From IMG/VR virus record IMGVR_UViG_3300042270_000314: a stretch of DNA of 64,000 nucleotides, one strand, 5' to 3'. Each line of letters starts with the position of its first letter. The stretch's first letter is position 1. The position numbers and the translations under genes are program-made. Origin of the DNA: a virus (Duplodnaviria > Heunggongvirae > Uroviricota > Caudoviricetes). Shown in pieces: positions 868-57,877 of this stretch. Below the pieces are notes generated by a model. The model ran no database searches, was not told the DNA's origin, and was given only the letters and a program-made list of their open reading frames with translations.

Positions 868-1527
868 CTATTTCACAAGATGGAAATGGCGCTCGTAAAC
901 ATGAATTGAGCCCACTTGGTGAATGAGATCTCCAAGTTCCAATTCTGGATAATCAATCTTCAGATCTTTAAGAAGTTTATTATGTACATGTCTTGCCCAA
1001 TACAAATCGTTCTTGGCCCCAAATACTGCATCGCTCGAACGTTGATTAAGGATATAATGTAATTTATTGTTTCGAATAAGTGTCTGAACGGAATTAGTAC
1101 AAACGAAGTCGCTCATTCCATTTACATTATATTCCCATTGCATTGAAGGTCTTGTATAAATCATCATTGCTCTACGTGAATCTTTATCTCTACGTAATGT
1201 TCTTAGACAATTTTTATATTGTTCACCATTTTCTTTAGAATAAATTATCCAGCCATAATTTGAATTAATATATCCATTTTTATCACAAACTTGTCTCCAA
1301 ATCTGTGGGCATTTTGGAATATCATACACATTTAGTGACTGTGATTCATACCATTCTACTTCACGAGCAGCATAGTCCATATTAAGAGAACCAAAAATTA
1401 CTTCTTCATCTGCAATATAGGATTCACCAACTAATTCAATTGTTTTAACCCCGGTCTTATCAATGACAAACTCTTTATTTTTGAGTTTGTCAATAAAAGC
1501 GATTCTAATATCCTTAATAGTTTTCAT
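868..1527 (-). CDS. 42: dCMP hydroxymethylase (T4 gp42 homolog, thymidylate synthase fold)
   Basis: DKTGVKTIE, INSNYGW, DSRR..MIYTRPSMQ, GMSDFVCTN, KND, GSIHVYERHF match T4 gp42 as recalled; Asp (ND) at the cytosine-specificity position. Confidence 0.9.
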   Translation of the reverse strand: MKTIKDIRIAFIDKLKNKEFVIDKTGVKTIELVGESYIADEEVIFGSLNMDYAAREVEWYESQSLNVYDIPKCPQIWRQVCDKNGYINSNYGWIIYSKENGEQYKNCLRTLRRDKDSRRAMMIYTRPSMQWEYNVNGMSDFVCTNSVQTLIRNNKLHYILNQRSSDAVFGAKNDLYWARHVHNKLLKDLKIDYPELELGDLIHQVGSIHVYERHFHLVK

Positions 1528-1529
1528 CT

Positions 1530-2207
1530 CTAACCTCGTATAAGTTTTACAATTTCATATACTGATTCATCATATTTTTTACTCTGTACATCATTACAAC
1601 AATTAAGTTTTTCAATAATAGTATCTAGGGTTTTCATGGCCTTTTGTTCAATATCATCTTCTTTTAAAAAGATCAAAATTTCATTTAGAATCTCTTCTTT
1701 AGATTTATTTGTGACATCAATAATTTTCTTGTTAGGAATTTCTGTTATCATAACAGCTTCTTCAAACTTCTGTCTTTCAAAAATCTTATCATTTCTATCT
1801 GTAGAAAGTGATAACCCATCATCTCTTTCAAGAGTATTATCAATATTATCTCTAAGGAAAATTAAATAAACATCATTCCAAAATTTATGATTCATAAATT
1901 GATCTTCAAGCTTCCATAGATATGAAGGATTATACCCTCTATATCTAGAATACACATTTTCCCCAAGATGTGATCTATCACAAATTATATTAATGTTTTT
2001 GGAATGAAAATATTCAAAAGCTTCGAACATCTCTGTATAAAGTTGTTTTGAAAGTTTTCTAGCTTCTTCAGAATTTATAGATTTGACTCCTGAATAATGA
2101 AGGACATGAGCTGTTTTGTTTTGTTTATTCCAAAAATTAAAAAGAGCTTTTACATTAGTAGTTTTGAAACAATTGTCAAGACCTTCAAATAAAACAATTT
2201 TTGACAT
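1530..2207 (-). CDS. dNMP/thymidylate kinase-like P-loop protein
   Basis: FEGLDNCFKTT P-loop variant and ICDRSH motif; adjacent to gp42. Confidence 0.7.
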   Translation of the reverse strand: MSKIVLFEGLDNCFKTTNVKALFNFWNKQNKTAHVLHYSGVKSINSEEARKLSKQLYTEMFEAFEYFHSKNINIICDRSHLGENVYSRYRGYNPSYLWKLEDQFMNHKFWNDVYLIFLRDNIDNTLERDDGLSLSTDRNDKIFERQKFEEAVMITEIPNKKIIDVTNKSKEEILNEILIFLKEDDIEQKAMKTLDTIIEKLNCCNDVQSKKYDESVYEIVKLIRG

Positions 2208-12537: not shown

Positions 12538-13551
12538 ATGTTAGATTTAGATTTTGTGTATTCATTTATAATGGAGAATTTCCCCAATGTGAGTGTGACT
12601 CGTCACGGGTCACACTTCAATTTTCGTTGTCCTTTTTGTGGTGACTCCGAAAAATCTAAAAAGAAAAAAAGATTTCATCTTCAATTTGTGAATGATGAAT
12701 CTATATTCTTCAATTGTTTCAATTGTCAGTCATCTGGTAATTTTTATGATTTATATGCTCATATTCATGGAATATCTTCAGAAGAAGCATATAAGAAACT
12801 TAAACGATTTAATGAAGATTCTATAAAACAAAAACTTGTAACCAAATCAAATATAACTCAAAAGAAAATAGATTTTTCAAAATATGAAAACTTTAATGAT
12901 TTTTTAGAAAGGGACTGTTTATCTATAGATTCTAATCCTACCTCATATTATCATTCTAAGCTGATAGAGTATTTGAAGTTTTTTCAGGGATCAAGAAAAA
13001 TTACTACTAAACTTTTTGTGTGTCATTCTGGTACATTTGAAAAAAGAATTATTATTCCTATTATAGAAAATGATATTTGTATTTTCTTTCAGGGAAGAAG
13101 AATTCTAGAGACACAATATCCCAAATATTTGAATCCCTCTATTGAGAAAGAAAACATCATACTCAATAAAGAAAATTTTAATAAAGAGAAATTTATCATA
13201 ATCACTGAAGGTATTCTAGATGCCGATGCAGTTGGAACACAGGGAACAACTTGTTTGGGTGCATCTATTACTGATGAATTTCTAAGGGAACTTTTTAAAT
13301 ATACAAATAAAGGTATAGTTCTTGCTCTTGATAATGATAAAACAGGTCAAGAACAAATTCAAAAAATCTTCAAGCAAAGTGAGTATAATAAAAAGCTCCT
13401 ATACTTTACTTTAGAAAAAGAAAAAGATCTAAATGAATATAAAACAGATAATCCTAATACAGATGTGTATAAATATGTATTAGATAATGCTCTAACTTAT
13501 TTGGAAGCATATACATTATATACTATGGATTGTAGAAGGAGAAATTGTTAA
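12538..13551 (+). CDS. 61: DNA primase (T4 gp61)
   Basis: NFRCPFCGDS...CFNC zinc finger; TOPRIM TEG.LD and DND. Confidence 0.9.
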   Translation: MLDLDFVYSFIMENFPNVSVTRHGSHFNFRCPFCGDSEKSKKKKRFHLQFVNDESIFFNCFNCQSSGNFYDLYAHIHGISSEEAYKKLKRFNEDSIKQKLVTKSNITQKKIDFSKYENFNDFLERDCLSIDSNPTSYYHSKLIEYLKFFQGSRKITTKLFVCHSGTFEKRIIIPIIENDICIFFQGRRILETQYPKYLNPSIEKENIILNKENFNKEKFIIITEGILDADAVGTQGTTCLGASITDEFLRELFKYTNKGIVLALDNDKTGQEQIQKIFKQSEYNKKLLYFTLEKEKDLNEYKTDNPNTDVYKYVLDNALTYLEAYTLYTMDCRRRNC

Positions 13552-14021
13552 TGATTATTTCATATCATAGAGAAGATTATATAGAGGTAGATGAACTATG
13601 ATTAAGGGCTAATGAAAATGTTATTCAAAAGAAAATACATTTAGTTAAAATATGTTTTGTCAAACCAACAGAAGATAAATTAGATCAGCTATTGTATATT
13701 CTTCCTAAAACAAATAGATTTATTATAGATTCCAATGTTAAAATTTATAATGATTATTTTAAGAAAACAAAGAAGAAGTTTTATGTGGAGAATACATATA
13801 AAGATGAAGCTAAATTTGTTTCATTTTTAAGAAAAAATAATAAAATTCTAATAGACTTTACTAAATTTACATCATCTAATCTTAAATATGTTTTATATGA
13901 ACTAATTTGAGAAGACCTATTGAGTAATATTGAAATTATAAAGATGGACAAAATTTCTTTTGAATTATATAAAGAACATCTTATGAATTGGGATGGTAAT
14001 ATAATTCTAATGAGTGAATAA
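13551..14021 (+). CDS. hypothetical protein (156 aa); in-frame TGA at 13599 and 13908
   Basis: TAATG-coupled to primase and to the next gene only when TGA is read through. Confidence 0.75.
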
Positions 14022-14824
14022 TGAAATCATTAGCTTTTGGACCGTATTTAGGGGACTTTAAATATGAGGTTTTTTATTTTTTACCATATATTAGATGAGT
14101 AAAAACTCTTATTAGTCCTGATAAAATATTTATATCATCACATTTTAATAGAGAATTTTTATATAAAGATATAGTAACGGATTTTTATCCTATTAACCCT
14201 ATATTAAGTATTGATGAATTTTCTCAAAAGAATCATTTTAATAAAAATATATATAAAACAAGGTATAATGAATTAGAAAAAAATTTTAAAGATGCATTAA
14301 CAGATTTAGATAATGTAGATTTTTATAATTTTGAATATAGTAGATTTAAACCTCCCTGTTCTATATATCAACTACTATTTAAAAAGCTTCAATATACAAC
14401 GAGATATAGATTAGAAAATAAAATTGTGTTTATCCCGGATAAATCTGAAAAGTATAATTATACAAAAGATCTATTCATATATTTAAAAGATATCTTGGGG
14501 GATAGACTTGTTGTAGTTGGGGATAATAAATCTCATTTAGAAATTCATAATGAATTATTGAATAGAAGTAATTACCATGATATAATTTATGAGGAACTTA
14601 TAAACTATATCTCCTCATGTAAAGCTGTAATAACCCCAAATTCTGTATGAACTGGTATAGCAAATTTACAGGAAAAACCTGTTCTTTCATGGGGACCTCT
14701 AGTTTCAGAATATAAAGAAGGCAAATATTATTTTAATAACACAAAAGGTAAATTTTACCCTAAATTAGAATTAAATAATTTAAAGAAATGTATAGATTTA
14801 TTTTTGGAGGAAAATTGTGCTTAA
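14021..14824 (+). CDS. putative glycosyltransferase (GT9/GT-B-like); in-frame TGA at 14096 and 14648
   Basis: Continuous 267 aa frame; GPYLGDFKYE N-terminus and ITPNSVWTGIANLQEKPVLSWG C-terminus resemble the heptosyltransferase-like fold. Confidence 0.55.
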
Positions 14825-15107
14825 GATCCACGATGTTTTTTGTGTATGTGGTTATGAGGATGAAATTTTATGTGAAAATGAAGAATTTGGGTTTTGTCCT
14901 AAGTGTGGCAAGGATCTAATGAAGTCATATTCAACATTCAATTTCAAACTTAAATATGATCCTAAAAAGGATAGAGTAGCTTGGGGTAATTCAAATTATG
15001 AAGAGTCCCAATATTGGAGAGAAGTCAAAAAACAAAAATTTGAAACTGGTAAGACTCCTTCTCACCCCGGAAGTTGCGACCACCCAGTAACTAAGAAGGA
15101 GAATTAA
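14817..15107 (+). CDS. zinc-ribbon (FmdB-like) protein
   Basis: CVCG...CPKCG. Confidence 0.6.
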   Translation: MLKIHDVFCVCGYEDEILCENEEFGFCPKCGKDLMKSYSTFNFKLKYDPKKDRVAWGNSNYEESQYWREVKKQKFETGKTPSHPGSCDHPVTKKEN

Positions 15108-16292
15108 ATGAAAAAGACAATTTTAATTCTAGGTGCTAATGGTTATATTGGTTGGGCTCTTGTTCAAAGAATGTCGCTAAAATACCCCAATTATACTATA
15201 GTATGTGTGGATAATTATTCAAGAGACAAAATTGTAGAACTTGAGATGGAATCATATTCTGCAACCCCTATTAGGAGAAAAGCTCAAAGACTAGAATGGG
15301 TACAGAGTTTTTGTTCTAATGTTTGTTGATATGAATTTGATTATGTTAAAGAAGATGGTGCCTTATCTGAACTATTTTTAAATTATGAATTTGATACTAT
15401 TGTAAATCTTGCGCATCAACCTTCTGGTCCATATAGTCAACTATCTGCACATCATTCTGAATATACATTATCTAACAATATCATAGGTACAAATAAAATT
15501 CTTTGGAAAATCAAGGAATGCTGTCCAAAAGCCCATTATATAACTATTGGTTCAACTGGGGAATATTCTCATAATTTGGATATTCCTATTGAAGAAGGTT
15601 ATTTTATGATGGAGGGGGCAGCTGATAAATCTATTTTCCCTCGTCGAACAAATTCAATATATCATACTTCAAAGATCGCAAATACATATATTACAGATAC
15701 TCTTTCAAGAATGTGAAATATTAAGTCAACAGACATAATGCAGGCAGTAGTATTTGGATCATATACTGATGAAATTGATTTCACAAAAAATTATACAAGA
15801 ATGGACACAGATGCGGCATTCGGGACTGTCTGTAATAAGTTTATGACTCAAGCTATTCTTGGTATGGATTTAACAGTATATGGATGGGGAGAGCATAAAC
15901 GAGGATTTATTGCTCTTAATGATTCTATTCAAGCTTTGGAAATAGCTATTAATAATGATGTAGATCAATTTTATTCAGATTATTCCCCTAGAGTATGGAA
16001 TCAATTATCTTTCTGGTGCTCAATGAATGAATTAGCAGAAATGATCAGAATTATAGCATATAGAGAATATAATATAAAAGTAGGGATTAATCATATAGAG
16101 AGCCCTCGTCATGAAATAACAGAGGCGCCTAAACATTATTCATATAAAACAGATATTCTTCAAGATTTGGGTTATTATCCTACTAGATCATTAGAAGAAG
16201 AATTAGAATATTCAATGTGAGTTTTATATCAAAATAGAGAACATTTAAAAGGGCTTGAGAAAAATTTTGAAAACCATATAAGGTTCAAATAA
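15108..16292 (+). CDS. sqdB: UDP-sulfoquinovose synthase (SqdB/SQD1/Agl3-like); in-frame TGA at 15327, 15714, 16218
   Basis: GANGYIGW, HQPSGPYS, GSTGEY, SIYHTSK, RM[TGA]NIKSTDI (SQD1 KAWGIRATDL), FGTVCNKF..QA..G.DLTVYG; TAATG coupling at 16290-16294. Confidence 0.82.
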
Positions 16293-17554
16293 TGATTTAC
16301 TGTTTCGATGGCTGTCATAAGTTATTATCAAAGCATATAACTTATGACAACATAATAATTAATATGATGAAGTTTTGTCTTAATGATAAACGAATATCAT
16401 CATTTATTGTTACTGAACATAATGATTTTATCCAAGATATAGAACTAATTTATTTTAAAATTAAAAAACCTAATATAATATATTACGATAATGAATTTTT
16501 GTTTATTAGATCTATAGACTTTGAAAAGTTTTATAAAATAAAATTCAATTCATATAAAGATTTTATAAATTATGTTAAAAAATATATTGAATATACATGG
16601 GCAAAGAATGATATTAAATTAGATAAAGATAAAAAGTATATAAATTTTTATGGAATAACTAATACAATGTCCATGCCGAATAGAGGACCCATTATTCAAA
16701 CTCAAAATAAAATATATTATTTTAATAGAGATATAAAGAATTATGAAATCGGGATACAACAAAAATATGATTTTTGTCATTGAAATCATATTTTAAACCC
16801 AGATTGTAAACAACTTTCAGGTAGAGTTAGTGTTGGTCCTAATATTGTTATGTTTGGCAATACGTCTATGTGATGAAAAAATCTTAATATAGTAACAGAT
16901 TCAATATGGATGAAAGATTATTTTATAAATAATTTTGGTATAAATGAAAAACAGCTTTCAGTTATTCCGATATATGTAACTGAAGATTTTTATGAAACAG
17001 AAGTATGTTCTGATAGAAATATTGTTGGTATAGTGGGATATCCTAGATATGATGATGTTAAAAATATGTTATCATTAATTTTATTATGTAAAAGATTTCC
17101 ACACCTAAAATTTGAATTACTTTCAAGTAGATCAAAAAATCAATTTCCTACAGAACTCCAGCATATTAATAATTTACAATTTTTAAATGTTCCTCATTAT
17201 GATACTGTAAACATCATGAAAAAGTGGGGAATGTATATTGGGTTGAGCAAACGAGAAAGAGGTCCGGCAGTATTACAAGAATTGAAAGTATTAGGAATCC
17301 CCACAATATGTCCAAATCATACTGGATATAGGGAATTTAACCCCTTTATTGGATTAGATATAAAGCCATTTGAAAAACACACATCTAAAGATTTAGATTT
17401 ATATTCAGATGCCATAGAATATGTTTATAGAAATCATGAACAATGTATAAATAAAACTCAAGAAGACAGAATTAAATTCTGGAATGAAGAAAAATCAACA
17501 AAAATAGTTTCTAAAAAATGAGAAGATTTTTTTAGAAAATGTTTAGGAGCTTAA
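16292..17554 (+). CDS. glycosyltransferase GT-B (GT4-like); in-frame TGA at 16781, 16871, 16874, 17519
   Basis: Single 420 aa frame; LSKRERGPAVLQELKVLGIPTI resembles GT4 E-x7-E region. Confidence 0.7.
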
Positions 17555-17555
17555 A

Positions 17556-18185
17556 ATGGAACTTAAAAATAATATTTGACATAATGCATACTCGAATGAT
17601 CCTAAGAAACATGAATTCTTTAAGAAGCAACTTCAAAATCTAAAAGAGTCTAGACATTGGATATTAGATACTCTATTGTCACTAAAGAAGATCAAAACTG
17701 TGTTAGAAGTAGCACATGGTCCAGGTCTAGATTTAGAATATTTACATAGTAAGTTAGAAGATCTCCCCTTTAACTATACTGGGTTAGATTATACACCTAA
17801 GTTTGTGCAAATGCTAACAGAAAAATATCCTCAACATGTTTTTGTTGAAGGAGACGCAATGAATATGCCCTTTGAGGATAATTCATTTGATGTTGTTTAT
17901 ACAAGACATTCTGTAGAGCATATGCCAGACCCTCATAAAGAACTTGATGAAATTTTTAGATTAGCTAAAAAATATGTTATTATTGGTTGGTTTAGATTAG
18001 TAGATGGCCCTACTACATTAAATATTAAATCTAATATCAATGGTGAATTTCCTATGAATGATTTGAATAGGAAAGAATTTACAGATAGAATATTAGAATG
18101 AGGCACTATTGAAGATACTTTCACTATTAAACATAATGAATGCTGACTAGTAAAGAAGCATACTAAAAAAGGAAAGAAAAAATAA
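17556..18185 (+). CDS. class I SAM-dependent methyltransferase; in-frame TGA at 17577, 18099, 18144
   Basis: VLEVAHGPG, GLDYT, EGDAMNMPFEDNSFDVV, HSVEH; TAATG-coupled to the next gene when read through. Confidence 0.85.
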
Positions 18186-18997
18186 TGAAAATTGAATCTG
18201 TTACTATTACCGGATCGTCTGGTTACATTGGTGAAAACTTAATTAAATTTCTTAATTCTCAAGGTATTTTCAAAATTTATTGTATGGATAAAAAAGAGGG
18301 TGTTAGAGTTGAGGAAGTAGATGTTCTTCTAAATTCTGATGTTATTATTCATCTTGCTGCTGAATCTGGTATCCCCACATGTGAAAAGAATCCAGAAGAA
18401 GCAATTAGAAGTAACATTTCTGCATCTTTCAATATTCTAAAATTAGCATATGAAAATAAAATTCCTGTAATTTTAGCATCCTCTCAAGCTGCTAAGAATC
18501 CTTCTTCTGGGTTGTATGCTATGACTAAGTATGCTATGGAAATAGAAGCATTAAGATATAATGCTCTAGGTGCCCAGAATAAAATTCTGAGGTTCTCAAA
18601 TGTGTTTGGAGGTATTCATTATTTTAATAAAAAGAGCTCTGTTCTCTCATGTTTTGGTAAAGCATATTTAAATGGAGAAAAAGCTAAAATTCATGGAAAC
18701 GGCTGTCAGGAAAGAGATTTTCTTTTTGTTGATGATCTTTGTAAAGTAGTATTTGAAATTGCTGAAAAAATTTACGATATTGATGATGAAATAATTGATA
18801 TTGGAACTGGATTCCCTACATCTATTAAAGATATTGTTCAATATTTAGATATGGATTATGAATTTGAATATGAGAGGAATGGGGGGGAAGAGTGCAATTT
18901 TGCAGATACATATGTTATGGAAAAGCATGGATTAACTATACCGTCAATAAGTAAATTATATGAATTTTTAAACAGTTTGATTCGACAAAAAGAATAA
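18185..18997 (+). CDS. NAD-dependent epimerase/dehydratase
   Basis: ITGSSGYIG, HLAA, YAMTK, RFSNVFG, ERDFLFVDD. Confidence 0.88.
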   Translation: MKIESVTITGSSGYIGENLIKFLNSQGIFKIYCMDKKEGVRVEEVDVLLNSDVIIHLAAESGIPTCEKNPEEAIRSNISASFNILKLAYENKIPVILASSQAAKNPSSGLYAMTKYAMEIEALRYNALGAQNKILRFSNVFGGIHYFNKKSSVLSCFGKAYLNGEKAKIHGNGCQERDFLFVDDLCKVVFEIAEKIYDIDDEIIDIGTGFPTSIKDIVQYLDMDYEFEYERNGGEECNFADTYVMEKHGLTIPSISKLYEFLNSLIRQKE

Positions 18998-48519: not shown

Positions 48520-48672
48520 TAGAAAACCTTAGAAATCCCTTAATGTTTTATACACCTTTTTTCATAGTTTTCTGCAGTTTTCTTATAAGTTGTTGATATT
48601 ATTAGGAAAACTAAGATTTTGGTGGATTTCTAAGTTATTGAAATCATTAGGTTTCCTAAAAACTCGAGATTT
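48520..48672 (-). repeat. Dispersed repeat, copy C
   Basis: AAGTTGTTGATATTATTAGGAAAACTAAGATTTTGGTGGATTTCTAAGTTATTGAAAT shared with copies A and B. Confidence 0.8.
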
Positions 48673-49619
48673 TACAAATATTTTCGAAGAATTTCCACAA
48701 CATGCTTTCCGCCATTAAAAATATACTTCTTTTCTTCTGGGGTAACATCATCTCCAATATTATATTCTTTGAAAAAATCTTTTTTAGCATCTTCAAGAAC
48801 TCATTTTACATAATCCCCAATCTGACTGGGCTCACTAATTTCACCTTCCTTGCTAAAAACTGAAAGAACTCTATTTTCATTAATTAGTGTGTTGAAATAT
48901 GCTTTAAGTTTATTTACAGTAATGGAGTAATCTTTATTCTTAATTTCTCTAACCTTGGTCTTCTCCTTAAATTTCTCACTTTTCATTTTTAGATAAAATG
49001 AAGAAGTAATATTCCAGGGCTTGATGACCCATCCTTCTGCATGATCATTTGTTGGACTAAACGCAGATTCAAAATCTGGATTAATAGTTAATGCTTCTTC
49101 TAGAGAAGAATATATATGCACAGGTTTAACATATAGATTATTCATTGAAGTCAGATATTCAATATGATCCATAATACCACAAAAATCTTTTTGCGCTAAA
49201 TATTCCCCATTAACTCTCATATCAAAGAAAGTTAAATACTTTTCTTTTCCATAATTGATTCGTTTTTGAATGCCATAACCATATAATTCCCCATAAACAT
49301 TAAGCATAACATTTGCATCATTAGCATATATTTGAAGCTGTTTAATAGCAGGGGTGTATTTTTTAATGAGCTCAGGAAGAGATGCCCCTTGAAAGTTTGA
49401 TTCCTTATTTAACTTATTAGATCTTGAAGCAATTTCAAAGCTATCCATCATATCATCAAATGTATAATTCCCTGGATAAATTATAAATTGCAGGTTAGAT
49501 CCGTCTAGTTTTTCAAATACACCATACCTACACTCTTTCAATAGAGGATTATATTGAAATTCTCTGTCAATATGCTTTTGTTGGTAGCTATTCTCAATTT
49601 CACTATATTTAATAAACAT
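48672..49619 (-). CDS. rnlB: RNA ligase 2 (Rnl2-like); in-frame TGA at 48801-48803
   Basis: KYSEIEN, EKLDGSN, YGELYG, FFDM, AEGWVIKP, KMKSEKFKE; read-through adds the C-terminal helical part. Confidence 0.82.
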
Positions 49620-49672: not shown

Positions 49673-52228
49673 TTAAAAGAAGAAATTTAATGTTTCAGCA
49701 TTTAGATCCAGAAGATGAAGTTTTCCACATGGTTCAAGAAGCATTTCAATTTTTTTAATAAAGAATTTTTCAATCATTTTTTCAATATCAGGCTGAACAC
49801 ATTTAAGTTCTTTAGGATATTTAGATGAATATGTCAAAGTTTCAAAACCATAAGAATTTGGTAATAGGTAAATAACTTTGCTTTTTTCACCTTCAGTAAT
49901 TTCTTGATATTTGTCTTGGAGTCCAAACTTATTGATTAGAACCTGATGCGCATAGACACCCTTAACATGCCACGGACATCCTTTGACAGGCCCATCTGGT
50001 CCAAGATATTTTTTAATATTATTTACACCAATATTACCCGAAATATCTTCAAATGGAAGTTCACGAATTGCTTTTTTATAACTAATAATTTTGGATCTAA
50101 TATTCGAATCTTCTTCATTCTTAAGAATACATGTCATTACATCTTTAAGCATTTCTTTAATGGGTTTAGATGTTTCTGATCTAATAATGTCTAATCCAGT
50201 AACTTTAATTTTATCAACAGTCTTTCCTTCTTCATTTACTACCCAACATCCATATTTCTTCTTCTGCACTAATAGAACAGAAGGGCATACAATCTCCTGT
50301 TTCCAATTAATTGTATATTCCTTTTCTTGAGATGCAAAATGTTGATTTTGAATAATATTAAACGAATAATCATTAATAACTTTTTCAAGTTCTTTACAAA
50401 TCTTTAAAATAAAATTTACTTTTTCTTTATTTGATTGTAGTGAATTAAATTTGGATTGTAACTCTTTATTAGAATTGATGTATTTACCTATGCCCAGGAA
50501 ACAACTGTCAGTATCCTGGTAAAGAACAAAATCTAAATCTTGTGTATTACATTTTTCATTAAAATAACTATTAATAAAAGATGCAGAATTTTTTAATATA
50601 TGTCTGCCACATGCAGTAATTGCTTCTGCAATTCTAAGATTATATAATCTAAAATATGGTGTACTTAGTGCGCCATAAAGACTATTAAGGATACCAACCT
50701 TTACTGCTAACTGTGTAGTATTAAGTTCTGCAATCTTGTTTTTATCACCATCTTCCTTTTTCAATTGTAACATCTTATCTTTTGTATCTTTTCTTAACTT
50801 GAAAAAGATTTTTTCAATAATAGTTACAACACCCTGTTTAGTGTTTTTAAACACAGCACCATTTGGTGCAATAGAAAATGTACCTTTCTTAAGTAATGTA
50901 TTGAATATTTGAAGTTCTTTACCTGTAAGTTGCTTAATTTCTTTCTCAGGGCTCTCCAATGATATAACAGGAAATTCTCTTTTAGTTGTATAATCAATAA
51001 CTTCCTGTTCAGTTAAATTAACAATGCACCCAAAATAAGTTTCAGGACTCATATTTAAAGTAATAATATTATGTGGGTACATTGAAGTTACGTCAATATC
51101 TACTACCCATTCATGTAACCCTCTATCTGGTTCTTTGACAAAAGCAGCTTCAAACCATTCAGTCTTTCCCCCTTTAAGCTTAGGAGCACATAGATTATTT
51201 CTTCTATAATATGTTAAGAATATTCCTTCAAGGACATTTGTAACTTTATCATAAAATTTCATTGGGCATCTTGAAATCATACTAATAGTCTGAATAAGAT
51301 AAAGATACTTGAGTTTGTTTTCAAGTTTATAAATTAGCTTAACATCCTGAATATTATAGTCAACATATCTTTCCCAATCATTCTCAAAAAGCTCTTTTAA
51401 AGAACCATCATATTCTAACTTTGATTCTTTAAGTTCATTCTTAGCAATTTGGTCAAGCTTATATGATTCTGGGTTAGAACGAGTATATCCTTTATAAACA
51501 CTCATGTAATCTAGAACTGAGATTCCTGCAAAGTCAAAATTCAATCCAGAACCATCTTTCTTTTCCCAAACAGAATATTCCATAATAGGGGAAATTTTTC
51601 TGAACATTTTATTACTTTCACCAAAAAGCTTCTTACATCTGTAATACAGATATGGAATATCAAATCCATCAATATTCCATCCAGTAAGAATATCAATATC
51701 TGCTTCTTTATACATGAAGTCAAAAAAATCTCTCAAAAGAATTTCTTCAGTAGAACAGTAGGTAAAATTCTTTTTATGTTTTCCTGTATATGGTTTGATT
51801 CCCCAAGTTTTTGTACATCCATTAATATCGATTGAAATAGCTGTAACAACCCCTTCTGCTTCCTCAGGGGTTGGGAATCCCTTATCAATATTCACTTCTA
51901 TATCCAGACTTCCAATTCTTAGATCTGGTCTATATAATTCATCATCAGGGATATCATAATATCGCTCTGCTAAAAATTGAAGCTCTGGTTTTACATGATC
52001 TTCATACTTCTTAATAGATTTCTCGTCATTGAATGTTTTATATTTTTGGTAGTTTTGGAATTCAAGTTTCTTTACAGGAACATCATCAATACTTTTGATT
52101 GTTCCTTCTTTATCTGGAACAAAAATATAGGGAACCCAATCAATTTCAGTTGACATTCGTTCCCCGTTAATGGTTTCCCAAAGAGTAATCTTGCTTGATT
52201 TATAATCAAAATGAACATTTCTAAACAT
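49673..52228 (-). CDS. 43: family B DNA polymerase (T4 gp43)
   Basis: LDIE exonuclease I, GWNIDGFD, DVTSMYP, K..LNSLYG, YQDTDS, KKKY. Confidence 0.95.
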   Translation of the reverse strand: MFRNVHFDYKSSKITLWETINGERMSTEIDWVPYIFVPDKEGTIKSIDDVPVKKLEFQNYQKYKTFNDEKSIKKYEDHVKPELQFLAERYYDIPDDELYRPDLRIGSLDIEVNIDKGFPTPEEAEGVVTAISIDINGCTKTWGIKPYTGKHKKNFTYCSTEEILLRDFFDFMYKEADIDILTGWNIDGFDIPYLYYRCKKLFGESNKMFRKISPIMEYSVWEKKDGSGLNFDFAGISVLDYMSVYKGYTRSNPESYKLDQIAKNELKESKLEYDGSLKELFENDWERYVDYNIQDVKLIYKLENKLKYLYLIQTISMISRCPMKFYDKVTNVLEGIFLTYYRRNNLCAPKLKGGKTEWFEAAFVKEPDRGLHEWVVDIDVTSMYPHNIITLNMSPETYFGCIVNLTEQEVIDYTTKREFPVISLESPEKEIKQLTGKELQIFNTLLKKGTFSIAPNGAVFKNTKQGVVTIIEKIFFKLRKDTKDKMLQLKKEDGDKNKIAELNTTQLAVKVGILNSLYGALSTPYFRLYNLRIAEAITACGRHILKNSASFINSYFNEKCNTQDLDFVLYQDTDSCFLGIGKYINSNKELQSKFNSLQSNKEKVNFILKICKELEKVINDYSFNIIQNQHFASQEKEYTINWKQEIVCPSVLLVQKKKYGCWVVNEEGKTVDKIKVTGLDIIRSETSKPIKEMLKDVMTCILKNEEDSNIRSKIISYKKAIRELPFEDISGNIGVNNIKKYLGPDGPVKGCPWHVKGVYAHQVLINKFGLQDKYQEITEGEKSKVIYLLPNSYGFETLTYSSKYPKELKCVQPDIEKMIEKFFIKKIEMLLEPCGKLHLLDLNAETLNFFF

Positions 52229-52298: not shown

Positions 52299-52976
52299 TT
52301 AAATTTGTTGAACTAAATCTAATTCTTCTAAAGTATTAAATGATCTAGCCTTTTCAAAAGTAACTTCAACTATTTCGCCATCTATTAAATCAAAATTAAA
52401 AATATCCAGAAAGCTTATTTCTGTTCCTTTTTCATATTTAAACTTTTTGATTTTAATAAGACTCTTTAGAGCTTTTACAACATCTCTCTTTTTAAATAAA
52501 AACAATGACATATCATGATATCCAGTACCTGAAGTGTCATCCCCAAGTTTAGAAAATTTGATGTTAGTAATTTTTCTTTCCTCTGTTTCAATTTTTACAT
52601 AGGGATTCTCCTCGATAACTACAGGCATAAGAAACTTATTGTTATAAGAATCTAAGCAATGTTGAATAACAGAAGAAGATTGGATAGAATCGCCCCATGA
52701 CAAAAATACTAAATCTGTATTTTTGATAGGAAGCTCAAGTAGTGATGTTAATGCTGCTTCACCACAGCCATATCCAGATTTAATAGGAACAATTTCAAAA
52801 TGAGGATTCTTGAATTTTGAAAAGAATACCAAATTTGAAAATGAACACATTAGAAAAATTTTATCAACTTTTCCTTTAAATGCATTTATGTTTTCATTTA
52901 GAGCATATAGAGCTTTAGGGATATTTGACTTAAATCTTGTTTGATTTCCTGCTGCTAAAATAATAGCATATTTCAT
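52299..52976 (-). CDS. sugar-phosphate nucleotidyltransferase (NTP_transf/GlmU-N-like)
   Basis: IILAAGNQTRFKSNIPKAL, GCG.A, WGD, FNT.EEL. Confidence 0.85.
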   Translation of the reverse strand: MKYAIILAAGNQTRFKSNIPKALYALNENINAFKGKVDKIFLMCSFSNLVFFSKFKNPHFEIVPIKSGYGCGEAALTSLLELPIKNTDLVFLSWGDSIQSSSVIQHCLDSYNNKFLMPVVIEENPYVKIETEERKITNIKFSKLGDDTSGTGYHDMSLFLFKKRDVVKALKSLIKIKKFKYEKGTEISFLDIFNFDLIDGEIVEVTFEKARSFNTLEELDLVQQI

Positions 52977-54688
52977 TAATAATCCTCACTTAATAATCTA
53001 AGAATCAAATTTGTTTCTTTGATGGATTTTACATTAATAGCTGTATCGCACTTTTTGGAAATTTCTACATCATTACCAGAGTCACATTCATCACCAATAT
53101 ATAGACATTTATTAAAACTATATTGATCTAAAATATATTTCTTACATGCATTCTTTGGAATTATATCAATACTAGTAGTTCCAGTAACTTTAGCAATACA
53201 ATCAATACTATTATGAAAAAAGAATATATTAAGATGTGTTGTAAATTCTTTTCTATATTGATCATCTAGGGGTTTAATATTAATACAAGTTATAATTTTG
53301 CCATAACCTCTTTCTGTAACTTTAATTGACATTCCATGAATATCCAAATAATTCCTTATTAAATCTATATCATCCTCTTTAATTCTCATAATATGGTCAT
53401 AATAAAGATCATTTTTATAACAAATTAATCCACCATCAGCCCAAATATCAATACCAGAATGATCCCCAAATCTTTTTCTAATATGAGAATATTTGTTTCC
53501 AGAAGCAATAACGATTTTTTTCTTTTTTGCTAAATATTTTACATATTCAACATTTGCAATAGAAATAGAATTTAAGTAATAATCTTTCTTTCTTGAGTAA
53601 ATTGTATCATCAAAATCCATAAAAATAGTATCATGATTAAGTAAATTATAATATATAGAATAAACTGCATTACCTAAAAGAATAGGGTTATGTTTTCCTT
53701 TATTATTTTCCATATCATAAAAGACACTAGTATCTTTATACCCGGGATTTACAATACGCATAATCATAGATGCATTATTATTAAAAAGAAATGTTGTATT
53801 GTTTAAATCAACATATGAAGATACTATTTTAATAATATCTGCACTATTGATACCTTTCATATCCTTATCTTCTTCATTATTAACAATAAAAATCTTTTTA
53901 CCAGAATAATCATTCATAATATGCTGAAATTCAGTATTCTTATATGTGGGGATCAATGAACTCCATTGAGTTCCTGAACTAAAGATCAAAAGATCTGTTT
54001 TTTCTAAAATAAGATCTTTAACTTTTGGATTAAGAAAGTAATAATGGCTTTGTGTGCATTCAAGATCCTTGTTATAGAAGAACACATCTTTAATTTCAAT
54101 TTCTTGGTTGTTTAGATCAACAATGGAGCCCTCATCCATAAGAACGTTTTTTGTTGTGTGAGCTCGAAGTACAAGATTCTCAAAAGAATTTATTACAACA
54201 TCATCTTTTAGATTTAAAAATTTCTTAAAAAACTCTGCTACCTTTTCTTCTTTATTCGGGAACCCCTCATAATAAATACACATCCCGCCATACACAATAT
54301 TAGCAATAGAAAAATCTTTAAACTCAAAATTAGGGTCTATTCTTTCAAAAAATAGATCTACAGCATTATAGAAAATCTGAAGCTCCCATTGTTCTAAAGC
54401 ACTTTCAATAAATTTTTTAGGATTCTCTTTTGGAATATCAAACCGCATTTCATAAAAATCTAAAATACTTTGATTATGGATGTCGTGATTTGTAAGATAC
54501 TGAACATAATGATTTTTTCTAAGATCAGAGGGTCCAAGACAATTACAAATTTCTCGAACCTGACCAGTACTTTTACCATCATCATACATATTAATTAAAT
54601 TGGTGATCTTACAATCAGGATAAAGCGCTTTTAGGCCCTTTTGTAACTGAATTGAACCGGATCCACCAGACAAAATAGTTATATTCAT
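52976..54688 (-). CDS. CofD/YvcK(UPF0052)-like domain fused to a HAD-IIB phosphomannomutase-like domain
   Basis: N-terminal LSGGSG, DDGKSTG, GPSDLRK, GTQWSSLIP; C-terminal DFDDT, ASG, SIDI.PK...K..L, GDECDSGND.EI. Confidence 0.78.
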   Translation of the reverse strand: MNITILSGGSGSIQLQKGLKALYPDCKITNLINMYDDGKSTGQVREICNCLGPSDLRKNHYVQYLTNHDIHNQSILDFYEMRFDIPKENPKKFIESALEQWELQIFYNAVDLFFERIDPNFEFKDFSIANIVYGGMCIYYEGFPNKEEKVAEFFKKFLNLKDDVVINSFENLVLRAHTTKNVLMDEGSIVDLNNQEIEIKDVFFYNKDLECTQSHYYFLNPKVKDLILEKTDLLIFSSGTQWSSLIPTYKNTEFQHIMNDYSGKKIFIVNNEEDKDMKGINSADIIKIVSSYVDLNNTTFLFNNNASMIMRIVNPGYKDTSVFYDMENNKGKHNPILLGNAVYSIYYNLLNHDTIFMDFDDTIYSRKKDYYLNSISIANVEYVKYLAKKKKIVIASGNKYSHIRKRFGDHSGIDIWADGGLICYKNDLYYDHIMRIKEDDIDLIRNYLDIHGMSIKVTERGYGKIITCINIKPLDDQYRKEFTTHLNIFFFHNSIDCIAKVTGTTSIDIIPKNACKKYILDQYSFNKCLYIGDECDSGNDVEISKKCDTAINVKSIKETNLILRLLSEDY

Positions 54689-54697
54689 ATACTCTCC

Positions 54698-55810
54698 TTA
54701 CAGATTTTCTTCTATAATTTTTCTAAAATCTTTACAATATTCATTTATATCTATCATCGTATCCTTGTATTGTAAATCTTGAATCAAGGAAATATGTTTT
54801 GGGTTTTGCTTTAGAAATCTAAGTTTCTTTGCTACATCTTCTCTTGAAGATACATAGCAAAATTTTCTAAGTGTCTCATTAGTAAATACTCGTTTATTTT
54901 TATCATAAGAATCATCTATAAATGTAATATTACCACATAGAATAGATTCATATATCCTTTGTGCTAGATCATCAACCTGCTTATACAGAATGTCACCAAT
55001 AATAACTGTGGAAAGCCCCTTCTTCATTTCTTCATCAAAGTTTTCATATGGAACAGCTTTGCCAAATTCCGGCATCCTAAGATTTTGTTTGTTTTTCTTA
55101 AAATGTTTTTCTTCAATCTTTCCAAACATATTAACTTTAATATCTTCTGGATAGCCAAAATAAAATTTGATCATATCATCTTCACGTCTACCAGATCTAA
55201 ATGTTCCACCATAACTAATATCCCAAATACACTCTTCAGGATTTAGAAAATTTTTATTCATAGTTACAAGGGGAAACTTCTCAAATGGAAAATGAATAAC
55301 ATCTTTAATATCAATCTTGCTCTTTTTGATATGCTCTTTATATTTTAAAATATCTTTTGGTTGACAGATATATTTGATGTCTTTCCTTTGGATAAGAATA
55401 TCTTCCTTTAAGTAATTATCTCTCCATTCCTTCTTTTCAATAGAGGGCCAAACCTGAGTTAAAGTAAGATTAGGATCACATAGAATATAGAAAACCGGAC
55501 CTTTGAAATTATTTACAATTTTGTAAGCAATTGTATCTGATGGAGAATCTTGACCACCAAAATAATTTGCATTACCATTTAAGATCAATAAACAATCATA
55601 TTCTTCACTTCTAACTTCTTCTTTTAAAATATCTCTAATTTGAAAATCCAAAGGCATTTGATCTTTATTAAGAATTTTGGTATAAGCGGTTACATCAATT
55701 CCTGCAGTTGTAAGAAGCTTAATAATTGCTAGGGTTTCCCCATTGCCGCCGGAAGTAGACCTAGAATTAACACAGATTCTGGATCCAAGTTTTAAAACAC
55801 ATACTTTCAT
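54698..55810 (-). CDS. bgt: DNA beta-glucosyltransferase homolog (T4 BGT family)
   Basis: NYFGG, QVWP, HFPFE, YGGTFRSGRRE (T4: YGGSFRSGQRE), IIGD..Y, RIYES. Confidence 0.85.
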   Translation of the reverse strand: MKVCVLKLGSRICVNSRSTSGGNGETLAIIKLLTTAGIDVTAYTKILNKDQMPLDFQIRDILKEEVRSEEYDCLLILNGNANYFGGQDSPSDTIAYKIVNNFKGPVFYILCDPNLTLTQVWPSIEKKEWRDNYLKEDILIQRKDIKYICQPKDILKYKEHIKKSKIDIKDVIHFPFEKFPLVTMNKNFLNPEECIWDISYGGTFRSGRREDDMIKFYFGYPEDIKVNMFGKIEEKHFKKNKQNLRMPEFGKAVPYENFDEEMKKGLSTVIIGDILYKQVDDLAQRIYESILCGNITFIDDSYDKNKRVFTNETLRKFCYVSSREDVAKKLRFLKQNPKHISLIQDLQYKDTMIDINEYCKDFRKIIEENL

Positions 55811-55838: not shown

Positions 55839-55846
55839 TATTTATA
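55839..55846 (-). promoter_or_regulatory. possible late promoter before bgt
   Basis: TATAAATA overlapping the upstream stop codon, 28 nt before ATG. Confidence 0.4.
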
Positions 55847-56312
55847 TCTTTGAAGATAGCATTTCTATCCATTTTAGATTTATATTTTGAGAATATTTGG
55901 TTTTAGGTGTAACCGGCCAATAATATCCTATAATACCATAGTCAGTGTATCCAAATTGAAAATAATGAGAGGGAAGTTTTCTCATAAGATTAGATTGGTG
56001 GGAAATATGAACTAGATCATCCCCCCACCATTTTGGGAGAGTCATTTTGTGTAAATCAACATCATAATAAGGAATTTTTTCGAATTTGAAGCCTCGTGAA
56101 ATACATTCATACTTCATAAAATTAGCATAGTGTTTGAGAGCCCAAATGTTATTTTTCCACATTCGAACTGCGGGATGGTTCTTCCAGGCATTGGATCTGC
56201 CCTCAAGAACATTAATAATTTGAAAACATTCAAGATGTTGTTTGTTAAGTCTCTTGTTATCGAGGACTCTGGCGCATATAAAAAAATCTTTCGAGGGGAC
56301 AAATGTTTGCAT
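55842..56312 (-). CDS. pyrimidine dimer DNA glycosylase-like (MSMEG_6728/DenV-related) protein
   Basis: MQTF.P, LD.KRL.KQ..E..QI, W.NHPAV.MW, SHQSNL.RK. Confidence 0.75.
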   Translation of the reverse strand: MQTFVPSKDFFICARVLDNKRLNKQHLECFQIINVLEGRSNAWKNHPAVRMWKNNIWALKHYANFMKYECISRGFKFEKIPYYDVDLHKMTLPKWWGDDLVHISHQSNLMRKLPSHYFQFGYTDYGIIGYYWPVTPKTKYSQNINLKWIEMLSSKI

Positions 56313-56743: not shown

Positions 56744-57877
56744 TTATTGAAACATTTTTTTGAAAAATTTTAATTCTTGTTTTTCTTTATCTTTTAACTT
56801 TTTACCGTTAATAATTACATCATATTCATAATAAATATAAACACTTGGATCTTTAAGATTTAAAGAGCTAATTGTAATATCAAGAATCTTTAGGGTGCCC
56901 TCATTGGTTTTAACAACATCTCCAATTTTAATGTTTCTTGGGATATCAACACCCTCATCTAACTCACCAAATTCGGATTCACTAAGATTTTTTGTCATTT
57001 CTTTGTATTTGTCTAAAAGATCTTTATTCTTACTAATTTCAGTTGACTTCATAGCATATCGTGCTGTCTTAGCGTTTCCAAGATGATATAATGTTTTCTT
57101 TTCATCTCCTCGTTCTTTAGATGCAATTGCTTTTTTCATGTGCTGAGCAAAAGTAGCCTCATCTAAATCTTCTGTTAATGCTTTAGGGTTCTTCTTGAGA
57201 TAATCTTCTAGCCACTCAGCAATTTCAGAAGCCATCATGTCCTTACCACCAGGAACAGGGATTCTAGTTTTGTCTCCATCTTCCTTATCAATCATAACAA
57301 AAACGTTATTGCCAACTTTTTGAGTTTTTGCAATAGATTTACCATTAATGGAAAGGGAACCCTGAACCCCTGTTGTAACTTTGAATCCTTCATCAAGATC
57401 TTTTTCATAAGATGATTCATTTAAATTATAATCAACATTTGGAAAATCTTTTCATAATGATTTTAATTTATTAGAGTCGGTAAAAACTTCGCCAGGCACC
57501 CACTTATTAGAGGAGTCAAATGTATATACTTTAAATTTTATTTTACTATTAGTTCTAAATACAATAACACATTTATCATTATTTTTAGGAGTTTCAATAT
57601 TACCAGTAAGATGGGCAATTTTGAATTCTCTTTCAGATAATCCAATATCTTTTTTTACCGCCAAAACTATAAGAGATGCTTTAGATTCATTCAAATCTTC
57701 TGTAATATAAACAACAATTCGTTTATTGGTTTTAGTATCTCTCAAAGTGGCATGTTTTCCTACTTTAAGATCCTGTTCCGCTTCCCAATATCCATCTTCA
57801 ATTTTCTTTTCTACCTTCTTAAGACTCATCTCCTTTGTCTCAGAAAGATAGTTTTTTAACTTTTGTGCAATGTCCAT
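56744..57877 (-). CDS. putative internal head (ejection) polyprotein, 377 aa; in-frame TGA at 57452-57454
   Basis: Two track ORFs join in frame (KSL[TGA]KDFP); modules separated by LSE/LNE/LDE/LTE linkers. Confidence 0.55.

Follow-up and report, generated by a model that had tools for sequence, protein, structure and literature searches.

The DNA considered here is a window of 64,000 nt from a 133-kb viral contig (IMG/VR record IMGVR_UViG_3300042270_000314, Caudoviricetes; ~58% complete, 31% G+C), in which three minus-strand open reading frames (ORFs) of 370, 570 and 225 aa fill positions 52299-55810 just upstream of the gene for the family B DNA polymerase (PolB). They encode a DNA glycosyltransferase of the beta-glucosyltransferase (BGT) family, a fusion of a YvcK/CofD-like domain with a HAD domain of the phosphomannomutase (PMM) type (CofD-HAD), and a nucleotidyltransferase (NT), whereby CofD-HAD and NT are referred to as the unit. 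An initial annotation, made from the sequence alone, had described this three-gene operon directly upstream of the polymerase and had named the same three identities; the ORFs were recovered exactly as given, and family profiles and structure models agree on what they encode. The spacing is tight, with 9 nt between bgt and the fusion gene, an overlap of 1 nt between the fusion and NT genes and 70 nt between the NT and PolB genes (Table 1). Shine-Dalgarno-like sites precede the BGT, CofD-HAD and PolB genes, a TAA stop was seen for the BGT and NT genes, and no terminator was found inside the three-gene operon. The top promoter-like site on the minus strand lies before the denV-like gene, and promoter-like sites in the region are overall no more frequent than expected by chance. 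In a megablast search, none of 50,697 phage records was matched by the region.

Table 1. Features of the 64,000-nt window that are discussed in the text (aa, amino acids; E-values follow the family or structure matched).
Feature	Position	Strand	Remarks
BGT-family DNA glycosyltransferase	54698-55810	-	370 aa; matches PF09198, phrog_7922, 1bgt
YvcK/CofD-like + PMM-type HAD fusion (CofD-HAD)	52976-54688	-	570 aa
YvcK/CofD-superfamily domain of the fusion	53669-54688	-	~aa 1-340, N-terminal; predicted catalytic
PMM-type HAD-IIB domain of the fusion	52979-53650	-	~aa 347-570, C-terminal
Predicted GlmU-fold sugar-1-phosphate nucleotidyltransferase (NT)	52299-52976	-	225 aa
Family B DNA polymerase (PolB)	49673-52228	-	PF00136 9e-31, phrog_262 3.6e-181; context, outside the module
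denV-like pyrimidine dimer glycosylase	55842-56312	-	PF03013 1.3e-21; immediately upstream of bgt
Top minus-strand promoter-like site	56370-56343	-	TTTACA-16-TATAAT, 11/12
gp42-type dCMP hydroxymethylase	868-1527	-	219 aa; T4 gp42 1b49 1e-75
dNMP/dTMP kinase-like protein	1530-2207	-	225 aa; phrog_761 2.8e-10, TIGR00041 8e-5, both weak
Tight row of six genes (island)	13545-18997	+	seen only under genetic code 4
Island ORFs of 158 aa and 267 aa	within 13545-18997	+	no assigned family
SQD1-like protein (UDP-sulfoquinovose synthase homologue)	15108-16292	+	394 aa; TGA read as Trp; plant SQD1 1qrr 2e-54
S-adenosylmethionine (SAM) methyltransferase	17556-18185	+	island gene
Short-chain dehydrogenase/reductase (SDR), epimerase or reductase	18185-18997	+	island gene
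Examples of putatively TGA-recoded stretches	13545-18185; 56744-57877; 48672-49619		

The BGT homologue matches PF09198 (2e-21, 76.8 bits, cut-off 27), phrog_7922 with residues 1-367 (8e-48) and T4 BGT itself (1bgt, 5e-34, phmmer). In the phmmer alignment with 1bgt the equivalents of T4 BGT D100, R191, R195, R269 and E272 are identical, of which Asp100 is the catalytic base of T4 BGT and Arg191, Arg195, Arg269 and Glu272 are its UDP-phosphate ligands. Identity to T4-type enzymes amounts to 24-29%, and the BGTs linked to the unit (35 distinct sequences) form a subfamily that is split from the T4-type BGTs by a long branch with a support of 100/100. From these features the enzyme is predicted to glycosylate 5-hydroxymethylcytosine (5hmC) in the phage DNA. 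In the gp42-type protein the catalytic Cys is kept and Asp stands at the positions of ThyA N177 and L143, the alignment showing DFVCTN, SSD and KND; Asp is likewise present at the D169 position. The 5-hydroxy-dCMP synthases of the RB69 type were reported in a 2026 paper to have Asn at the D169 position (PMC13326640), and this identity was ruled out for the protein encoded here, as its D169-position Asp is retained; hence the base is predicted to be 5hmC and not 5-hydroxycytosine (5hoC). The protein is predicted to be a true gp42-type 5-hydroxymethyl-dCMP synthase and the phage, which is T4-like, to be an hmC phage; this is what the initial annotation had assumed and what the full set of diagnostic residues bears out. 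The assignment of gp42 and a kinase to 868-2207 in the initial annotation stands, the matches of the kinase being weak. No match to an alpha-glucosyltransferase was obtained on the contig, though that search had no positive control.

The N-terminal half of the fusion protein matches PF01933 (CofD) with residues 3-296 (8e-14, 52 bits, cut-off 30). Using the AlphaFold model of the fusion protein (pLDDT 93.8, pTM 0.90), Foldseek matched this domain to YvcK/UPF0052 structures (2hzb) (7e-15, TM by target 0.77) and to CofD 3c3d (1.3e-8), and a profile of the fusion family matches YvcK 2ppv with 4e-29. The model for CofD proper (TIGR01819, LPPG:Fo 2-phospho-L-lactate transferase) was not reached (11.7 bits vs a cut-off of 257) and neither was that of the YvcK/GlmR subfamily (TIGR01826, 47.8 bits vs 196), YvcK nevertheless being the closest solved relative. 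Because both scores lie far below the equivalog cut-offs, the domain was placed in the CofD/YvcK superfamily as an orthologue of neither. A true CofC/CofD pair of F420 biosynthesis was ruled out by the equivalog score and by the GlmU fold of NT, and no F420 genes were seen near the unit. The phage, giant-virus and bacterial versions of the CofD-like domain have ~25 invariant residues in common, including the GGxG loop, D36, T41-G42, R45, S54-D55, R57-K58, R82, N130, E186, N270 and D274. The TQxGET of YvcK is replaced by ExDKDM, in which both Asp (D274, D276) are invariant. The domain is acidic in all groups (median pI 5.0-5.7), and this acidity together with the shared active site, as read from the alignments, would fit one conserved small-molecule reaction better than DNA binding, or than the binding of acceptors as unlike each other as DNA and glycans.

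In the C-terminal half, HAD motifs I-IV are invariant in an alignment of 29 sequences, namely DxD (D358, D360), K516 and GDxxxxGND (D533, N539, D540). When compared with the PDB, the HAD half of the fusion family profile matches PMM 7myv (3e-15), alpha-phosphoglucomutase (alpha-PGM) 4bnd (1.5e-12) and PMM2 (1e-11), the match to the phosphatase YbiV being far weaker (2e-3). Foldseek gave PMM2 9hn3 (5e-11) and furthermore eukaryote-type PMMs, the atypical alpha-PGM 4bnd and trehalose-6-phosphate phosphatases; the score for TIGR01484 was 23.6 bits vs a cut-off of 41.8. Motifs and model point to a predicted phosphohexomutase or hexose bisphosphate phosphatase. The NT model (pLDDT 95.5) finds its top fold match in the uridyltransferase (pyrophosphorylase) domain of GlmU with a TM of 0.78-0.82. 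As a word-based search with NT gave just 4 proteins, its homologues were gathered from the loci described below; 28 of them keep the G-x-G-x-R...P-K loop (AAGxxxR...PKAL) and a WGD motif, with A9, G10, R14 and K21 invariant. On fold and motifs NT is a predicted GlmU-fold sugar-1-phosphate nucleotidyltransferase. PHROGs holds no family for the CofD-HAD fusion or for NT.

How the unit is distributed among viruses was surveyed by hidden Markov model searches around the CofD-HAD gene in 66 IMG/VR viral loci, ~50 of which are phage. NT is adjacent to or fused with CofD-HAD in 62 of the 66, and three of the four exceptions are cut contigs. Within 10 kb of CofD-HAD a BGT-family gene was found in 40 loci and a gp42-like gene in 30, homologues of the kinase-like gene occur in 32 loci at no more than 10 kb from the module, and a TET-associated glycosyltransferase (TAGT, PF20691) is located near CofD-HAD in five, in two of them flanking the CofD-HAD/NT pair. 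In 45 of the ~50 phage loci the immediate neighbour of the unit is a BGT- or TAGT-family DNA glycosyltransferase, and the unit sits within hmC, nucleotide and replication gene blocks of unrelated phage lineages. Recurrence on dozens of distinct viral contigs excludes chance as the origin of the three-gene arrangement, and, as the unit keeps company with bgt and gp42 among the phage loci, the initial annotation is not refuted by a lack of co-conservation, a condition that it had itself named. A word-based search of the protein database gave 530 relatives of CofD-HAD, among them more than 120 full-length fusions, mostly on large contigs. Among isolated phages the fusion was found only in the Ralstonia jumbo phage RsoM2USA, and it is furthermore present in one uncultured phage of 462 kb. 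Genes 2, 1 and 486 of RsoM2USA encode BGT, CofD-HAD and NT in the same order, spanning the ends of the record, with identities of 48%, 30% and 29%, respectively, to the proteins described here, and a second ThyA homologue lies 4.6 kb from the module. In the paper on RsoM2USA only BGT was annotated, genes 1 and 486 being entered as hypothetical.

Several phage groups show further neighbours. Eighteen jumbo-phage loci share a block of gp42-like, helicase, kinase, BGT, CofD-HAD, NT, guanylate-kinase-like and MazG-like genes. In this subgroup of 18 (within L016-L070; e.g., L016:12658-13266, L020:13399-13845) the guanylate-kinase-like gene directly follows NT, and in 14 of the loci it is followed by a gene for a MazG/PRA-PH-like pyrophosphatase, which could be a dCTPase analogue of T4 gp56. 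In one lineage (L007:1531-6140, L008:8682-13287, L009, L012, L066) the CofD-HAD/NT pair is flanked by TAGTs (PF20691 6e-31), no BGT is present, and a conserved protein of 148 aa with no assigned family occurs. In another lineage (L014:6100-9991, L023, L061) the pair is immediately preceded by a Vut_1/YhhQ-like transporter, a 313-aa ORF, a short-chain dehydrogenase and a protein of 297 aa that is GT2-like by language-model features alone; its identification as a TAGT was rejected (hhalign probability 0.4%).

Outside the phages, the unit occurs in three further settings. About 14 loci are giant-virus contigs, recognised by D5/AEP primase, 2-cysteine adaptor (2C_adapt), HECT and Dis3-like RNB domains, in which CofD, HAD and NT form a single ORF of 773-837 aa (e.g., L047:10001-12325; triple fusions in L040-L042, L046-L048, L051, L052, L055-L060). 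No BGT or gp42 lies nearby; the gene next to the ORF belongs to a Nucleocytoviricota family of 230 aa and is often duplicated. An FkbM-like methyltransferase fold was suggested for this family, which gave no sequence match in the PDB. A scan of species-representative cellular genomes identified the full-length fusion together with NT in ~40 GTDB bins of metagenome-assembled genomes (MAGs; L071-L112), mostly from gut Clostridia and one from Methanobrevibacter. There NT always adjoins the fusion, on its downstream or its upstream side depending on the bin, and neither BGT nor gp42 was found in these ~40 loci by tblastn; a conserved gene of 465 aa lies upstream of the unit. In Proteobacteria and cyanobacteria, by contrast to the fused versions, stand-alone CofD-like proteins of ~404 aa reside within polysaccharide clusters, where gp42 and BGT are again missing from the neighbourhood and the gene order is GT4, CofD-like, beta-phosphoglucomutase (beta-PGM)-family HAD, GT2, GlmU-like NT, AsnB, EpsG and GT1 (loci L113-L150, e.g., L115:6762-15651; L128, Sphingomonas humi; L132, Prochlorococcus; also SAR86). 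A description of what this bacterial triad does was not found in the literature. As the three functions are separate genes in bacterial polysaccharide clusters and fused in giant viruses, the triad was reasoned to be an old glycan-precursor unit. In the bacterial version a beta-PGM-type HAD takes the place of the PMM type, and both lineages are known as phosphohexomutases. This exchange between two phosphohexomutase lineages is the strongest argument available, drawn from sequence comparison, that the HAD step may be hexose-phosphate isomerisation or bisphosphate handling.

Whether the unit is needed by its neighbouring glycosyltransferase was approached by a reverse survey that began from the unit-linked BGT subfamily and covered 77 loci. 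A CofD-HAD gene lies at most 6 kb from BGT in 39 of these and not in the other 38, and on the BGT tree presence and absence of the unit interleave with 6 changes, at least 2 of them forced by well-supported branches. Four jumbo-phage genomes that are 94-100% complete encode a BGT of the same subfamily and no CofD-HAD anywhere, the positive control having been recovered in 5/5 cases. Interleaving and unit-less complete genomes together led to the view that the unit is an accessory, repeatedly gained and lost, and not required by the BGT subfamily. As a consequence of this dispensability, a BGT specialised for an exotic product is less likely; the pattern fits a booster of a common donor or a second-layer decoration.

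In the phage described here TGA seems to serve as a sense codon, probably for Trp. When it is read in this way, ORFs cover 113.2 kb of the 133-kb contig as opposed to 93.7 kb otherwise, and in-frame TGA occurs in 57 of the 142 ORFs of at least 100 aa, among them three with lengths of 1401, 701 and 497 aa. One in-frame TGA aligns with a Trp of SQD1; the PolB, BGT, CofD-HAD, NT and gp42 genes are without in-frame TGA, and no suppressor tRNA was found among the 10 tRNAs of the incomplete contig. The plus-strand row of six genes that emerges under code 4 may be a sugar-nucleotide tailoring island. Its SQD1-like protein keeps the catalytic S/T-YHxxK residues (Ser/Thr, Tyr-His, Lys), and characterised relatives of SQD1 turn UDP-glucose and sulfite into UDP-sulfoquinovose. 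A 420-aa ORF beside it gave no match in Pfam, PHROG or PDB. The closest relative shares the SQD1-like gene (71% identity), whereas none of the 42 other unit-bearing records has it, hence it was regarded as a clade-specific addition and not as part of the module.

Set beside described systems, the locus resembles that of T4 in combining a gp42-type synthase with a GT-B fold BGT in which the catalytic Asp is retained along with the Arg and Glu residues that bind UDP-phosphate. It differs in that T4 takes its UDP-glucose from the host in a galU-dependent manner (PMC3130283) and carries no donor genes, whereas here a three-domain unit separates bgt from gene 43 and the BGT belongs to a separate subfamily. 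The phages RB69, DLP3 and HY126 encode a UDP-arabinose pathway, in which AfhE (kinase and NT) and AfhF (HAD phosphatase) feed DNA arabinosyltransferases (PMC13326640). Common to that pathway and to the unit would be the making of an own NDP-sugar by a phosphoryl-transfer enzyme, a HAD enzyme and an NT beside DNA glycosyltransferases and a ThyA homologue; here, however, a CofD/YvcK-like domain stands for the kinase and a PMM-type HAD-IIB domain for the GmhB-like phosphatase, an arabinose-5-phosphate isomerase is lacking, and the base is predicted to be 5hmC instead of 5hoC. YvcK/GlmR is a UDP-N-acetylglucosamine-binding protein for which an accessory N-acetylglucosamine-1-phosphate uridyltransferase activity was reported (PMC10128056). 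It is the top match of the N-terminal domain in sequence and structure, and both its GGxG loop and the Asp of D-D-G-x-S-T-G are invariant (D40 of Lm GlmR corresponds to D36 here), but the CofD-like domain has ExDKDM for TQxGET, invariably occurs together with an NT and a HAD enzyme of the mutase type, and is found in viruses and polysaccharide clusters. With CofC/CofD (FbiD/FbiA) the unit shares the pairing of an NT with a CofD-superfamily enzyme above the cut-off of PF01933, from which it departs by the GlmU fold of its NT, by the lack of an Fo/F420 context and by the added mutase-type HAD domain. The latter resembles eukaryote-type PMM and atypical alpha-PGM (PMM2, 4bnd) in fold and in motifs I-IV including GDxxxxGND, yet it is fused to a CofD-like domain and shares an identity of only ~16-22%. 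The initial annotation had noted that no role of a CofD/YvcK domain in DNA modification was known to it, and literature searches agree with it: nothing was found on the superfamily in phage DNA hypermodification, with phage glucosyltransferases or TAGTs, or in polysaccharide clusters. That phages encode the synthesis of donors for glycosylating their DNA is known as such; the present enzyme set and a role of CofD/YvcK in it are absent from the searched literature.

On balance and with modest confidence, the unit is read as a portable NDP-hexose supply line that feeds DNA glycosylation. From the observed gene identities, folds, motifs, linkage, fusions and distribution we infer the substrates, the order of steps and the use of the product by BGT as follows. 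Cytosine would be replaced by 5hmC via the gp42-type synthase and the kinase, and after replication the BGT-family enzyme would glycosylate 5hmC. The HAD domain would convert hexose-6-phosphate to hexose-1-phosphate, either directly or via the 1,6-bisphosphate, and NT would form NDP-hexose from hexose-1-phosphate and NTP, which would then be used by BGT on 5hmC. The CofD-like domain may be an active enzyme on a soluble phospho-sugar or NDP-sugar of the same pathway, whereby the formation of a hexose phosphate or 1,6-bisphosphate primer, which HAD mutases need, the phosphorylation of a sugar, or a second, GlmR-like nucleotidyl or phosphoryl transfer are candidate steps. The phage would thus glycosylate its DNA independently of, or faster than, the host donor pool allows, and glucose or another common hexose is thought a likelier product than an exotic sugar. 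The sequence of mutase and then NTase, as already put forward in the initial annotation, is the most economical reading, and it is backed by the giant-virus triple fusions and by the bacterial swap to another mutase-type HAD. Further support comes from the near-obligate linkage of NT and CofD-HAD (62/66 viral loci plus ~40 MAG bins), and the single-ORF triad of the giant viruses was counted for the unity of the pathway as a Rosetta-stone fusion. A three-enzyme donor route is plausible in view of its parallels, as ADP-heptose is made by a kinase, a HAD phosphatase and an NT and phage UDP-arabinose by a corresponding kinase/HAD/NT route. Glucosylation in T4 fails without host galU (PMC3130283), and given this dependence an own donor supply would be valuable. 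The SQD1-like protein, by analogy a consumer of UDP-glucose in this phage clade, was counted for the supply line as well. The same holds for the position of the unit beside DNA glycosyltransferases of two families and inside hmC blocks, for the preference of the HAD profile for PMM and alpha-PGM over phosphatases, for the GlmU fold of NT and for the small-molecule character of the CofD-like domain.

A number of points weigh against this reading. Mutase and NT alone would suffice, and a simple pathway of this kind gives the third domain no role; to our knowledge no member of this CofD subfamily has an established enzyme activity. Where bacterial polysaccharide clusters have dedicated genes, these mostly serve to make special precursors and not UDP-glucose, which argues that the product may be something other than a common sugar. 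The HAD-IIB class includes phosphatases, and the SPP subfamily was matched with 2e-7. Compared with the curated families PF00483, PF12804 and TIGR01173, NT stays below the Pfam and NCBIfam cut-offs (NTP_transf_3, E 0.043, 14.4 bits vs 27; glmU family model, 8e-5, 21.7 bits vs 367), whereas its homologues in bacterial clusters do pass PF12804 (3e-11), and in a manual alignment the uracil-reading Gln of GlmU is absent from NT. The adjacency to bgt could partly stem from a shared placement among early genes, and the locus counts include near-duplicate contigs and hence overstate independence, the 35 distinct BGT sequences notwithstanding.

The role that the supply line leaves vacant for the third domain is filled when the logic of CofC/CofD is transferred to the unit: NT would make an NDP-sugar (or another NDP-X), and the CofD-like domain would move the sugar-1-phosphate (X-phosphate) to a hydroxyl and release NMP. 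Phage DNA would offer glucosyl-hmC or hmC as the acceptor, and in giant viruses and bacteria a glycan would take this part; on the DNA a phosphodiester-linked second layer would arise, and BGT itself would take UDP-glucose from the host. It is established that CofD, the characterised superfamily member, carries out chemistry of exactly this kind with an NT partner in F420 synthesis. Such a transfer would agree with the near-obligate pairing of NT and CofD-like domain and with the invariant D274 and D276 in place of the YvcK TQxGET, and it would account both for BGTs of the same subfamily which work without the unit and for the triad among the glycosyltransferases of bacterial polysaccharide clusters. 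Yet the domain is acidic, and its invariant residues are nearly all common to the phage, giant-virus and bacterial versions despite their differing acceptors; the CofD equivalog score (11.7 vs 257 bits) and an NT partner that is GlmU-like and not CofC-like argue in the same direction, and the fusion to a mutase suggests neighbouring steps in precursor synthesis. We consider this transfer unlikely, and the specific form in which the CofD-like domain adds a phosphodiester-linked sugar to glucosyl-5hmC or 5hmC, to which the SQD1-like enzyme could add sulfoquinovose chemistry in this clade, slightly less probable again. No computed result separates a supply line from a CofD-type transfer decisively.

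Next to these two, the initial annotation had inferred that the phage makes its own NDP-sugar and attaches an unusual sugar or sugar-phosphate to hmC. In the strong version of this idea the unit would make an unusual NDP-sugar, and this BGT subfamily would have evolved to place that sugar instead of glucose. The long branch (100/100) that leads from T4-type enzymes to the unit-linked BGTs would fit such a specialisation, as would the special sugars that dedicated precursor genes in bacterial polysaccharide clusters mostly make and the extra SQD1-like protein, SDR and methyltransferase of this phage; donor genes are moreover known from phages which add other sugars, such as RB69, DLP3 and RL38J1 (PMC13326640). 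The extra sugar genes are, however, confined to this phage and one relative, the donor-phosphate-binding and catalytic residues of T4 BGT are retained, unit-bearing and unit-less loci interleave, and the four nearly complete genomes have the BGT without CofD-HAD. The idea is weakened by these findings and rated as quite improbable, and overall the interpretation of the locus in the initial annotation is partly supported. Very improbable, finally, is a general glycan or lipid auxiliary metabolic module that serves the glycosylation of virion or host envelope, or an SQD1-like branch, and is unrelated to DNA, so that its adjacency to bgt would be mere co-location. It could be reconciled with the giant-virus and bacterial versions, which lack gp42 and BGT nearby and lie beside FkbM-like methyltransferases or polysaccharide genes, and with the MAG-bin loci, equally without BGT or gp42. 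Among phages, on the other hand, a BGT or TAGT stands immediately beside the unit in 45 of the ~50 loci, the unit lies inside nucleotide and replication blocks in unrelated lineages, and the SQD1-like gene is missing from the 42 other unit-bearing records.

Which of the restriction, CRISPR and type IV defence systems are able to cut a phage depends on the sugar coat of its DNA, and the enzymes that build such coats are also tools for epigenetic sequencing. The donor routes known so far are a loan from the host, as in T4, and the kinase/phosphatase/NT route to arabinose of the RB69 type; the set described here is a different and widespread one which is tied to at least two families of glycosyltransferases. 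Since the cultured Ralstonia phage RsoM2USA has the full module, its chemistry is directly testable. If a CofD-type transfer onto DNA held true, phosphoglycosyl hypermodification of cytosine would be a new class, spread over many jumbo and T4-like phages. For the CofD/YvcK superfamily, the unit offers a first clue to the function of an uncharacterised branch which is present also in SAR86, Prochlorococcus and Sphingomonas clusters and in giant viruses.

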